Positions 54,983-58,565 of a stretch of 64,000 nt of DNA are shown here, in pieces (the stretch's first letter is position 1; every line of letters starts with the position of its first letter). A model generated the notes under the pieces. The model was not told the origin of the DNA. It made no database searches and was given only the letters and a program-made list of their open reading frames with translations. Origin of the DNA: Methanobacteriota archaeon. GTDB lineage: Archaea > Thermoplasmatota > Thermoplasmata > SG8-5 > JAGLSY01. The stretch lies in NCBI GenBank assembly GCA_020697715.1, contig JAEHCO010000005.1, forward strand, positions 32,001 through 96,000, read 5' to 3'. The position numbers and the translations under genes were made by a program.

Positions 54983-57949
54983 TCAGTCGACCTTGACCAG
55001 CCAGACCTTGAGCATGCGCTTGTCGATCGTCCATTCCTTGAAGGCCCCATCTGGTAGCTCGCCAATGACCATCTCATCGGCCAATATCTCGCGGCCGATG
55101 TAGTCCTTGTTCTGTTCGATGGCATTCACCATCTCGTCATCGCCATCGAAGCCGATCTTTATACGCTGGTCGTACTGGAGGTCCTCGTCCTTCCTGAGGC
55201 TCTGTATTCTGCGGACGACATCTCTAGCAATTCCCTCGCTTGCCAGTTCCGGTGTGAGCTCCATATCGATGAAGACCTTGAAGCCCTGGCCCTCTGCGAT
55301 CGCCGCATTTGCCATATCTGGATCTGTGGCGGAGAATTCCATGGATTTGACATTTAATTCCTCTTGTACCAGGGGAATTAACTCATCATACAATTGCTCG
55401 CCTTCCATGACGACGACAGCCTTCGAAAGTGGTTGTCGTAGCTTGGATCCAGATGTCTGTCTCGCATTTCTGCCGGTCTCGGACATCTTCCTGGAAAGGG
55501 TCATCATCCTTTCCAGTTCCATGTCGATAAGACTTTTATCGGATTCGGGATATGATGTCAGATGTACACTGGTTGGGGCATCCTTATCAATGCCAACTAC
55601 CAAATTCTGATACATAGCTTCAGCCAGATAAGGGGTGAAGGGAGCCATCATCCTGGCCGTGTCCACCAGCACCCTGTAAAGTGAAGAATATGCGGAATTC
55701 TTATCCTCATCCACATTCTCTGTCCAGAATCGGCGACGGGAACGGCGTACATACCAGTTGCTCAGATCATCAATGAAATCGAATATCGCTCTAACTGATT
55801 TATGAAGCTCCATTTTTTGAATTCCGCTTTGTACTGCGGAATTCGCACTCTGCAACCTGGACAATATCCACTTGTCCAGCAGATGCACTGGCTCGCTCTC
55901 GTTCCTTGGATCGAAACCATCCAGATTCGCATTGGAAACATAGAATGAATACACGTTCCATAGTGTATTCATCACCTTGCTATGTGCTTCCTTGAGCGAT
56001 GCATCACTGAACTTCTGGTTGGTCCAGCATGGCGCGGATAGAAGTGCTATTCGTGTAGCATCCGCCCCAGACTTGTCAAATGTCTCATGAGCATCGACCG
56101 ACGTGCCCTTGGACTTGGACATCTTCTGCCCGTCATTATTGAGCAGGAGACCCTGTGTCAGGCACTTCTTGTAAGGTGAAGTTCCAAAGGTCGCTGTATT
56201 GACCGCCAGCAAGGTGTAGAACCATCCACGCGTTTGGTCGATGGCCTCGGTTATGAAGTCCGCTGGATAGGAGGTGTCGAATAGCTCCTTGTTCTCAAAT
56301 GGATAGTGGAATTGTGCGAAAGGAGCGGAGCCTGAATCATACCAGGTGTCTATGACGTATTCCTCTCTCGTCATCCTTTTTCCGCAATCTGGACATGGTA
56401 TGTTCAGATCGTCCACCCATGGTCTGTGGGGCTCGAAATCATCGGGAAGATCTCCCGCCATCTTCTTCAATTCCTCAAAGCTCCCGATGCATATCTCCTT
56501 GGAGCAATCGCATCTCCAGACCGGAAGTGGTGTTCCCCAGAACCTGTTCCTGCTCAGAGCCCAATCCTTCAGTTCATCAAGGAAATTACCAAAGCGTCCG
56601 TCCTTGAGATGCTCTGGCTTCCATTCGATCGTCTGATTGTTCGCAACCATCTCATCCCTTAATTGAGACATGCGGATGAACCACGAATCCAATCCGTAAT
56701 ATAGAAGTGGTGAATCACATCTCCAACAATACGGATAGCTATGAACGTAATTCTCATCCTTATACAATCTATTATTATCATCAAGGTGGACCAATATCTC
56801 CACATCCAGGCCCTTCTTTTTAACAAAGCTACCCTGCCATTGTGTGACCAATTCGTTAAACTTTCCTTCCATGTCCACGGTATGCTTGGCCGGCAACCCG
56901 ATCTTCATTCCCAGATTGTAATCGTCCTCACCGTACATGACGGCTGTATGAACCACGCCAGTACCTTCTTCGGTGGTTACGAAGTCGGCAGCGACGACTT
57001 CGTAAGCCTTCTTGCCTTCCTCACGGAGGTCCATGAAGTCGAAAAGTGGATGATATTTCCATCCAATCATTTCCTCGCCTTTGATTACACCCAGTAGTTC
57101 GTGATCACCCTCTATCACCTTCTCGACGAGGTCCATGGCGAGAAGTAGTTTCTCTCCCTTCTGCTCCACTATTGCATAATCGATGTCCTTGCCAACTGCC
57201 AGTGCGACATTGCCCGGTAATGTCCAGGGTGTGGTCGTCCATGCCAGGATGGATGCCTCTGGCCCAAGTTTATCTTGATCATACTCGGATAATTTGAATT
57301 TGAGTGTGGCTGAAAGCTCCTTCACGTCCTTGTAGCCCTGCGCGACTTCATGACTTGACAGTGGCGTCCCGCATCTGGGGCAGTAAGGAACTATGTAATG
57401 CCCTTTCTCCAACAATCCCTTATCATAGATCGTCTTGAGGGACCACCAGACACTCTCGATGTAATTATCATCCATGGTGATATAGGGGTCTTCCATGTCG
57501 ATCCAGAAGCCCAATCGTTCTGACATGGCCTTCCATTTCCCCTCATATTTCATGACGGATTTTCTGCAAAGGCGGTTGAACTCCGCTACTCCGAATTCCA
57601 CTACCTGGGTCTTTGATCTCAGACCCAGTTCCTTTTCCACGCCTATCTCGACAGGCAAGCCATGGCAATCCCAACCGCCTTTCCATGGGAACACGTGATA
57701 TCCTTTCATCGCGTGGTATCTTAGAAAAACATCTTTGATCGCACGGCCAGCAGAATGCCCAATGTGGGGAATACCATTGGCAGTTGGCGGGCCTTCCAGG
57801 AATATGAACTTCTCATTACCCTGGTTCTTGGCGCGCAGCTTACCGAATATGTCATTCGCCTTCCATTGGCTAAGTGTCTCCTCCTCCTGCTTCGGAAAGG
57901 AGACAAAGGTCGGTACATCAGCAAAGATTTTATCTATTTCAGAACCCAT
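54983..57949 (-). CDS. ileS: Isoleucyl-tRNA synthetase
   Basis: EGPPTANGIPHIGH, GWDCHGLP, WTTTPWTLP, SRNRFWGTP, DQTRGWFY, KMSKS. Confidence 0.97.
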   Translation of the reverse strand: MGSEIDKIFADVPTFVSFPKQEEETLSQWKANDIFGKLRAKNQGNEKFIFLEGPPTANGIPHIGHSAGRAIKDVFLRYHAMKGYHVFPWKGGWDCHGLPVEIGVEKELGLRSKTQVVEFGVAEFNRLCRKSVMKYEGKWKAMSERLGFWIDMEDPYITMDDNYIESVWWSLKTIYDKGLLEKGHYIVPYCPRCGTPLSSHEVAQGYKDVKELSATLKFKLSEYDQDKLGPEASILAWTTTPWTLPGNVALAVGKDIDYAIVEQKGEKLLLAMDLVEKVIEGDHELLGVIKGEEMIGWKYHPLFDFMDLREEGKKAYEVVAADFVTTEEGTGVVHTAVMYGEDDYNLGMKIGLPAKHTVDMEGKFNELVTQWQGSFVKKKGLDVEILVHLDDNNRLYKDENYVHSYPYCWRCDSPLLYYGLDSWFIRMSQLRDEMVANNQTIEWKPEHLKDGRFGNFLDELKDWALSRNRFWGTPLPVWRCDCSKEICIGSFEELKKMAGDLPDDFEPHRPWVDDLNIPCPDCGKRMTREEYVIDTWYDSGSAPFAQFHYPFENKELFDTSYPADFITEAIDQTRGWFYTLLAVNTATFGTSPYKKCLTQGLLLNNDGQKMSKSKGTSVDAHETFDKSGADATRIALLSAPCWTNQKFSDASLKEAHSKVMNTLWNVYSFYVSNANLDGFDPRNESEPVHLLDKWILSRLQSANSAVQSGIQKMELHKSVRAIFDFIDDLSNWYVRRSRRRFWTENVDEDKNSAYSSLYRVLVDTARMMAPFTPYLAEAMYQNLVVGIDKDAPTSVHLTSYPESDKSLIDMELERMMTLSRKMSETGRNARQTSGSKLRQPLSKAVVVMEGEQLYDELIPLVQEELNVKSMEFSATDPDMANAAIAEGQGFKVFIDMELTPELASEGIARDVVRRIQSLRKDEDLQYDQRIKIGFDGDDEMVNAIEQNKDYIGREILADEMVIGELPDGAFKEWTIDKRMLKVWLVKVD

Positions 57950-58000
57950 GAAAAAAACCTCCAGAAAAGATATCTGGCATGAGCTGGGCGAACGGTCACT

Positions 58001-58030
58001 TTATCTAATTATGATCGTGGCTGAGCTCAT
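58001..58030 (-). promoter_or_regulatory. Putative ileS leader peptide uORF MSSATIIIR
   Basis: ATG AGC TCA GCC ACG ATC ATA ATT AGA TAA, about 28 nt downstream of BRE-TATA (CGAAAAACCTATATATT, 58051-58067). Confidence 0.65.
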
Positions 58031-58157
58031 TAGTCGTGGTAAGAAGGTACAATATATAGGTTTTTCGTAGAGGCGGAAGTTCAATAATTTCAATAGAGGT
58101 TAACCTAGACGTTCTGTTGAAGTTCATGTACGATCAATCTACTGGACACCTCGAAGA

Positions 58158-58385
58158 CTAATCCTCGGCTTCTTCAGAAACTAATGGCCTCAGCATTCTG
58201 CCACTCGATATTCTAGGAGTGGCACTTCCTACTGGCCAGAACATCTCGTCAAAGGCTATACGGTACTCGTCATACAGAATGTCCATTTCATCAAATAATG
58301 CATATGGCTTTCCTTCGAACTCCTTTTTCCCCCTCTTTCTAGAAGGGGCATATATTAGATCTCCTGATTCGTCATATATGTCTAT
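58158..58385 (-). pseudogene. 75-codon open frame without a canonical start (ATA after an SD-like GGGGGTTGA); small protein or gene remnant
   Basis: Reads IDIYDESGDLIYAPSRKRGKKEFEGKPYALFDEMDILYDEYRIAFDEMFWP...EEAED*; not in the supplied ORF track. Confidence 0.35.
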
Positions 58386-58565
58386 ATTTCAACCCCCTTT
58401 TCCACAATTTACAATTCGAATATAAATTGTGTGTAATTAACAATTCTTAGGATATCTATATAATACTTTTTCATGCGATTGAGAAAAGGTTAATTTTTCT
58501 TTGGGTATCTGGGATATCCCATATCGCTTTTATATTCTCTGAAGCGATATCTGGGTTGATAATAG

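Follow-up and report, generated by a model that had tools for sequence, protein, structure and literature searches.

An isoleucine-codon leader peptide and a conserved helix ahead of ileS in Thermoplasmata: a candidate ribosome-read gauge of tRNA charging in archaea

The isoleucyl-tRNA synthetase gene (ileS) of a Thermoplasmatota archaeon is preceded by a leader that we read as a gauge of charged tRNA-Ile, sensed by the ribosome and raising ileS when charging falls. We put the probability of this reading at roughly 0.85. The full model that we develop from it, in which the output is premature transcription termination, has in our judgement an even chance of being right. The window, that is the whole stretch of DNA analysed, comprises 64,000 nucleotides of contig JAEHCO010000005.1 (assembly GCA_020697715.1), and all coordinates below refer to it.

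Layout of the locus

All elements of the leader lie on the minus strand. The purine run CGAAAAA (58061..58067), which we label BRE-like, adjoins the TATA box CCTATATA (58053..58060), and a BRE next to a TATA box is the established layout of archaeal promoters. The box occupies positions -30 to -23 from the ATG of a short upstream open reading frame (uORF), a spacing that implies a probably leaderless uORF transcript, its start site being placed from the promoter. The uORF (58001..58030), recognised from the sequence and from its conservation in relatives, encodes the leader peptide MSSATIIIR*, and its Ile control codons, ATC ATA ATT (58007..58015), end one codon ahead of the stop. Its first 11 nt, including the AUG, form arm 1 (58020..58030), the 5' strand of a helix, P1, supported by folding and covariation. 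The partner is a switch strand, arm 2 (57978..57989), assigned to arm 1 by covariation and predicted to pair around the ileS start codon once arm 1 is masked. Further downstream, folding places a 5-bp hairpin, CCAGA/UCUGG (57961..57977), over the ileS Shine-Dalgarno sequence (SD) GGAGG (57958..57962), before which a conserved UUYU is evident from its enrichment in leaders. A first U4 tract (57965..57968) lies in the loop and 3' strand of this hairpin, and a U7 tract (57951..57957), picked out by a count of longest U runs, would be the second U-tract of a candidate aCPSF1/FttA terminator. Then follows ileS itself (54983..57949, ATG at 57949), encoding a type-2 isoleucyl-tRNA synthetase of 988 aa with IleRS domains and intact HIGH and KMSKS motifs. 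BRE-TATA, uORF, stems, SD hairpin, U7 and ileS ATG had all been named in a first-pass annotation of this DNA, and each was found in its place on this strand.

An ORF on the opposite strand (57735-58070) was rejected as a gene, being a shadow frame of inconsistent length in relatives. Upstream of the promoter (58161-58388, minus strand) lies a 76-codon open stretch, possibly a gene remnant; it has no paralogue in the genome, and we take it to resemble the N-terminus of a small heat-shock protein.

Conservation of the uORF

A single uORF with an Ile triplet is unremarkable, 51 of 422 TATA-anchored short ORFs of the genome having at least three of one residue near their end. What lifts this one above chance is its conservation in orthologous leaders and the covariation of its outer helix. 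Our survey of ileS leaders covered 61 relatives and 301 class-level genomes, 176 of the 301 with a close IleRS match, and upstream DNA was examined for 119 ileS2 loci at class level. To be counted, a uORF had to begin with an ATG 55-130 nt upstream, span 7-20 codons and have an Ile-rich end, limits that were set after a first look. Ile-run uORFs were found at 64 of the 119 loci: in the window's own family f1 (4/4), in f4 (8/8), f7 (23/23) and f18 (27/28), and also in f14 (1/1) and f2 (1/2, the f2 case doubtful). The first-pass annotation had staked its proposal on conservation of the Ile run in related ileS leaders, and the run is indeed kept at 62 of the 63 loci of the four main families, f1, f4, f7 and f18. 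The same limits yielded no uORF in f3 (0/2), f12 (0/6), f13 (0/16), f16 (0/5), f20 (0/17), f21 (0/3), f28 (0/3) and f31 (0/1); applied to clostridial homologues, they yielded a uORF in 3 of 79. In the uORF-less families, many ileS genes have a TATA-like box directly before their own start.

A few loci stand apart. The f2 candidate, L013, was set aside as doubtful: it is in the training set of the covariance model described below, yet that model misses it. L113 (genome G268), the sole f18 locus lacking a uORF, has a TATA box at leader distance and, by eye, complementary arms, with neither ATG nor Ile run; it appears to have lost the sensor recently. The ileS homologues L019 and L020 each have one in-frame stop (TAG and TAA) in their N-terminal match, probably because that match extends beyond the true start, into upstream DNA.

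The 64 leaders encode 54 distinct peptides in 8 length classes (9-17 codons), all in frame, and Ile makes up 32.5% of their residues. Their Ile codons are mixed (ATC 89, ATT 84, ATA 78), and so are their stops (TGA 46, TAA 9, TAG 9). ATG, one transition away from ATA, accounts for 8 of the 259 internal ATN codons, and in all 62 leaders of the four families the last Ile stands 0-2 codons ahead of the stop. In 61 of 64 leaders the best TATA has its first base 29-33 nt upstream of the uORF ATG, to be compared with 27-35 nt in 19 of 23 leaderless valS genes. Frame, lengths, mixed Ile and stop codons, ATG avoidance, position at the end and TATA spacing all show that selection acts on a translated, probably leaderless frame and not on an RNA repeat. 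The ATA codon, through tRNA-Ile2, had been put forward as part of the signal. All three Ile codons occur in 46 of the 64 leaders, but five leaders have no ATA, so tRNA-Ile2 is not an obligatory signal.

The same features bear on a reading without a ribosome, in which the AUH repeats in the P1 loop would serve as an RNA site, such as a mimic of an anticodon to which IleRS binds, and the ORF would be incidental. Autoregulation of E. coli thrS works through a synthetase that binds an anticodon mimic, and Ile runs necessarily hold GAU/CAU triplets, the anticodons of tRNA-Ile, here located in the P1 loop. Against this, the frame is kept across the length classes, the stop follows the last Ile closely with all three stop codons in use, ATG is avoided, and the consensus structures contain no conserved anticodon-like stem. 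We regard IleRS binding as very improbable.

Specificity to ileS

A covariance model of the leader finds one copy in this genome, at ileS2. Among 40 chosen genomes it matches in 31, with hits at ileS2; the matches include four genomes outside the upstream-DNA set, whose hits adjoin ileS coordinates. A search of a phylum sample with strict filters returned 2 of 151, its own and one f18 genome. In the same genomes no cognate uORF was found at valS (0 of 23 usable loci, 6 of 29 having been dropped for a short flank or missing motif) or at leuS (0 of 27, 1 of 28 dropped). Nor was one present at the 13 aaRS-family matches inspected in this genome, a set in which the Phe, Arg, Ala, Glu and Lys synthetases are not individually included, and genome-wide uORF scans of this genome gave chance-like candidates only. 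The heads of f7 thr/ilv operons carry no leader peptide (6 of 8 loci informative). The suggestion that other synthetase or biosynthesis genes might have cognate-codon uORFs was thus not borne out at any of these sites, and the leader element is a single-gene device in this genome. What did hold is the core of the original proposal, a probably leaderless cognate-codon uORF linked to a helix, which proves conserved and specific to ileS.

At the f7 loci L311-L326, ilvD ends an operon that is divergent from another gene; we take the operon to be thrC-hom-aspartokinase-like and the divergent gene to be homoserine-kinase-like.

A helix that includes the uORF start

The minimum free energy fold of this leader contains the stems described, among them one between the uORF start and 57979-57989, but taken singly the fold is not significant, with a z-score of -1.44 and 14 of 200 shuffles equally good. 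Across 46 sequences P1 is 83.0% paired, with two-sided changes in 7 of its 11 pairs, kin being non-independent; the figure is 93.4% in f7 and 91.7% in f18. Controls gave 0 of 500 shuffles and 31-41% for slid helices, phylogeny being uncorrected, and P1 beats shuffled arm 2 in 60 of 62 leaders. The distance from the uORF stop to arm 2 is 10-16 nt across leaders. A hallmark of leader-peptide attenuators, a conserved helix that includes the uORF (1:2 in the usual numbering), is therefore present. The long uORF stem of the first-pass annotation survives in part: its outer helix covaries, and its inner stem ACGATCAT/GTGACCGT appears in no family consensus structure. A second job for P1 is plausible, namely hiding the uORF AUG so that a single ribosome votes.

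What happens when a ribosome occupies the uORF? Masking it accordingly in equilibrium folding raises the opening energy of the ileS ribosome-binding site (RBS) in 59 of 62 leaders and lowers it in none. In the masked folds arm 2 pairs with the ileS start codon in f1 and f4 (consensus, 12/12 paired, invariant) and with the SD in f18, and in f7 it lengthens the SD hairpin. P1 and the helix at the ileS start are mutually exclusive in folding. It had been supposed that a stalled ribosome gives access to the SD, and folding with the ribosome footprint masked had been suggested as a check. In that fold arm 2 moves onto the ileS start, and the RBS closes instead of opening. Since masking closes the ileS start, a simple translational model in which stalling frees the SD fails; the closed start fits an antiterminator-like state in these predicted folds.

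The alternative helix itself behaves differently from P1. Pairing of arm 2 with the RBS is better than that of shuffled arm 2 in only 2 of 62 leaders. Its core CCAG:YUGG is invariant (92 of 96 cells in f18, 16/16 in f1, 26/32 in f4, 68/92 in f7), and it displays neither covariation nor an excess over permutation. In f18 only, a leader's own arm 2 pairs better with its RBS than others do (permutation 0.0002 and 0.06 in two tests, kin being non-independent). A classical 2:3 anti-sequestrator was sought in f7, and no dip in opening energy occurs there at any mask boundary.

These exclusive helices would also serve the same sensor with a purely translational output, a reading that we consider a good deal less probable than an even bet, if a serious one. 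In plenty, repeated leaderless initiation would cover arm 1, and arm 2 would keep the ileS start shut. In famine, a stalled ribosome would block re-initiation, and arm 1, emerging behind it, would capture arm 2 so that the ileS start opens. The mutual exclusion of the two helices and the f1 and f4 consensus between arm 2 and the ileS start agree with this scheme. So does a gentler mask: with a footprint of 12 nt upstream and 13 nt downstream of the A site, and pairing around it allowed, median opening energies are near those of the free state. It needs no U-tract and hence covers f4 and f7, for which it is better suited. However, the helix would have to close around a ribosome, and in nine-codon leaders arm 1 is still partly covered by the ribosome when it stalls. 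Once formed, P1 would hide the uORF AUG and lock the ON state in plenty too. Opening the f7 RBS takes about 11.5 kcal/mol even when P1 is formed, and the U tracts of f1 and f18 would go unexplained. The output step may differ between families.

The U-rich linker and a termination model

No other SD-led start among the 320 in this genome is preceded by a U run as long as U7. In 3 of 4 leaders of f1 and 23 of 27 of f18 (26/31 together) the stretch from the uORF stop to the ileS start holds at least two U4 tracts, which are nearly absent from f4 (1/8) and f7 (0/23). In the background one of the 320 SD-led starts has two, and this one is probably ileS itself. Of the 46 leaders that have GGAGG, 42 carry UUYU ahead of it, as against 2 of the 185 GGAGG-led genes in this genome; an f7 background for this count was set aside as apparently contaminated by ileS2 itself. 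Of the SD hairpin, f1 has the form described, f4 a weaker one and f7 a longer substitute, and most of f18 has none. The 5-bp hairpin plus U7 is found in the own family only, f18 having U tracts without a local hairpin and f7 a hairpin without two U tracts, and a conserved intrinsic terminator (a G+C hairpin, then a U-tract) does not follow the uORF across families. Of the hairpin and U7 to which the first-pass annotation drew attention, U7 itself is family-specific, and it is the pair of U4 tracts that is kept in two families.

Such tracts have a counterpart in the archaeal termination literature. Two U4 tracts are described as the minimal aCPSF1 binding element of M. maripaludis (PMC8716108), and in an account of FttA structure U-rich nascent RNA is held at -30 to -36 and steric exclusion of FttA by a coupled ribosome is proposed (PMC11616081). 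Our genome encodes aCPSF1.

To connect these observations we envision the following cycle. Transcription would start at the uORF AUG, as the promoter spacing suggests, and a ribosome would load at once. If Ile-tRNA is plentiful, this ribosome would complete its nine codons and depart, and arms 1 and 2 would form P1. With the uORF AUG hidden in P1, no second ribosome could re-couple, the U-rich linker would be largely exposed, and aCPSF1/FttA would cut and end most transcripts. If Ile-tRNA is scarce, the ribosome would stall on the Ile run and P1 could not close. Arm 2 would then pair into the SD/start region, or the ribosome would stay coupled to RNA polymerase, or both; FttA would be excluded and the polymerase would enter ileS. 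Once the ribosome moves on, P1 would form and the ileS start would open for translation, a direction taken from folding. This logic would match classical attenuation, a likeness that we think equally likely to hold or to fail: 1:2 pairing would be the released, terminating state, pairing of arm 2 downstream would mean transient read-through, and aCPSF1 with the U tracts would replace the bacterial terminator.

The termination model has difficulties of its own. Because the two U4 tracts are nearly absent in f4 and f7, which use SD hairpins, a single output step may not serve every family. The helix between arm 2 and the RBS is no better than shuffles and lacks covariation, and in the masked fold of this leader U7 stays unpaired in a bulge. 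Moreover, ileS would be briefly untranslated after read-through and so open to FttA.

A stalled ribosome at the 5' end could act instead on mRNA stability, protecting the message from 5'-to-3' decay or aCPSF1 cleavage, with P1 as the unoccupied state, prone to decay or blocking re-initiation. In B. subtilis a ribosome stalled near the 5' end of ermC protects that mRNA, and here the leaderless layout would place the stall at the very 5' end, with U-tracts that double as aCPSF1 cleavage signals. Protection would, however, leave the fixed spacing between stop and arm 2 and the excess conservation of arm 2 unexplained, and we find it improbable.

Relation to known systems

The leader-peptide transcription attenuators of E. 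coli, pheM-pheST and trpL/ilvL/hisL, share with our leader a short uORF whose tandem cognate codons lie close to its stop, and helices, one of them only predicted here, that compete at a set distance from those codons; pheM-pheST also has a synthetase gene downstream. They differ in that the host here is archaeal, the uORF is leaderless and its own AUG is part of the 5' strand of the helix. There is here no conserved 3:4 hairpin-plus-U terminator, and termination would need U-tracts and aCPSF1/FttA. The general scheme of leader-peptide attenuation is outlined elsewhere (PMC1262725; bioRxiv 10.1101/834739).

Mycobacterial polycysteine sORF attenuators are described with a leaderless uORF, a C-terminal homopolymeric cognate run and an RNA duplex involving the uORF (10.1101/834739), all of which recur here. 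In the account given there, the SD is base-paired to the control codons themselves and is released by stalling. In our leaders the partner of the uORF start is instead an intermediate switch strand, and masking the uORF closes the RBS; the SD-freeing behaviour of the polyCys and erm type was seen in 0 of 62 leaders on masking in equilibrium folding. Deinococcus deserti has leaderless cognate-codon peptides ahead of aaRS genes such as cysS, bacterial and predicted only, and the main text of that report makes no mention of ileS (PMC4007540).

The ileS T-box riboswitch (RF00230) serves the same target gene family and presumably the same signal, including a translational ileS variant in Actinobacteria (PMC1262725), but there the tRNA is bound by RNA and here it would be read by the ribosome. 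No T-box match was found in the leader or in the genome, and an Rfam scan of the leader gave three chance matches only and no family. The leuA-Halobacteria motif (RF03001) and the actinobacterial LEU element are RNA motifs, archaeal or bearing a leader peptide, that precede a branched-chain amino acid gene; they differ from ours in gene and sequence, and neither has a match over cut-off in this genome. RF03001 has reportedly been proposed to involve a Leu-rich ORF. By analogy, then, the leader would work as pheM-pheST does, and as do the leaderless leaders of mycobacteria and Deinococcus, yet it falls outside the classical-terminator, SD-freeing and T-box classes.

The mechanism had been called barely documented in archaea. 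That assessment agrees with the literature searched, which largely leaves out subscription journals and in which we came upon no archaeal leader peptide described as sensing an amino acid; two archaeal Ribo-seq papers mention uORFs only in general. Control by a cognate leader peptide is a known kind of control, which in archaea would be new as far as that literature goes. The leader suggests how archaea solved the sensing of tRNA charge without T-boxes. Being some 100 nt long and represented by natural compensatory variants in more than 60 genomes, it makes the role of archaeal transcription-translation coupling in gene-specific control, and the gating of FttA by a ribosome, directly testable.

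The synthetase and isoleucine physiology

The product of ileS classes as a type-2 IleRS, related to clostridial enzymes and not of the native archaeal type. Beyond the gene of a near-identical MAG (L120), its closest named relatives are mostly clostridial IleRS (51-57% identity over 300 aa), whereas identity between leader-bearing ileS and the native archaeal type is 39% and a long branch separates the two in a tree. A ranking of PDB entries, which we take to represent particular IleRS types, agrees with the assignment and puts the enzyme nearer to IleRS2 and eukaryote-like forms than to IleRS1. A T-box lies directly upstream in 12 of 20 clostridial homologues tested. The type-2 enzyme is the only IleRS found in this genome, which is 93.8% complete, and the native archaeal type was not found in it.

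Elsewhere in the class the native IleRS is usually a fusion with HhH, zinc-ribbon and DUF835 domains. The fusions measure 1240-2860 aa and carry DUF835 at the C-terminus besides their HhH repeats and zinc ribbons (L200-L219, e.g. L204:732-5483:+; further examples are L205:498-4745:+ and L203:501-9089:-). KMSKS is lost from the native copy in all 10 examined genomes of f1, f3, f4, f12, f14 and f18, and kept in f7 (3), f2 (1) and 6 genomes without a close type-2 match. In 10 of 14 examined genomes of type-2 lineages the native IleRS is kept with HIGH and KMSKS eroded, a sign that it may persist as a conserved pseudo-synthetase in some new role.

The gene ilvD was not found in this genome, nor in any of 22 genomes outside f7, and it is present in 8 of 8 f7 genomes. 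Because of this absence outside f7, most organisms with the leader probably cannot make Ile and depend on a single functional IleRS. This physiology, a sole IleRS in a genome where ilvD was not found, is why we take the leader to induce ileS. Read literally, the masked folds say the opposite: a stalled ribosome would keep arm 2 on the ileS start and shut ileS in Ile famine, and finished translation would mean ON. That would put positive feedback on the sole IleRS found in the genome. In the f1, f4, f18 and f14 genomes examined the native copy is without KMSKS, and the clostridial homologues bear T-boxes, which induce on uncharged tRNA. With these facts against it we think the opposite sign unlikely. 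Like the mRNA-stability and IleRS-binding readings, it is less likely than either the termination or the translational one.

Taking sensor, termination and gene history together, we tentatively propose, at somewhat less than even odds, that archaea have ribosome-mediated transcription attenuation acting by way of the archaeal termination nuclease. The uORF, leaderless and one-shot, would gate the access of aCPSF1/FttA, a CPSF73 homologue, to a U-tract terminator in the leader. It would do so ahead of a type-2 synthetase whose clostridial homologues use the T-box, and where the native IleRS decayed to a DUF835-bearing pseudo-enzyme.

One genome of the same genus, G002 (C277, C336; 74% complete), has no close type-2 match and two native-type IleRS-like genes, one a degenerate fusion and the other 53% identical to an intact native enzyme.

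A tree of 175 residues does not unite the leader-bearing families in a single clade, although the leaders themselves can be aligned in register; this suggests either one leader origin with losses or joint transfer of gene and leader. Clostridial IleRS nest within archaeal type-2 diversity in this tree (support 0.86, on a short fragment with biased sampling), and the gene may have been transferred from archaea to Clostridia.
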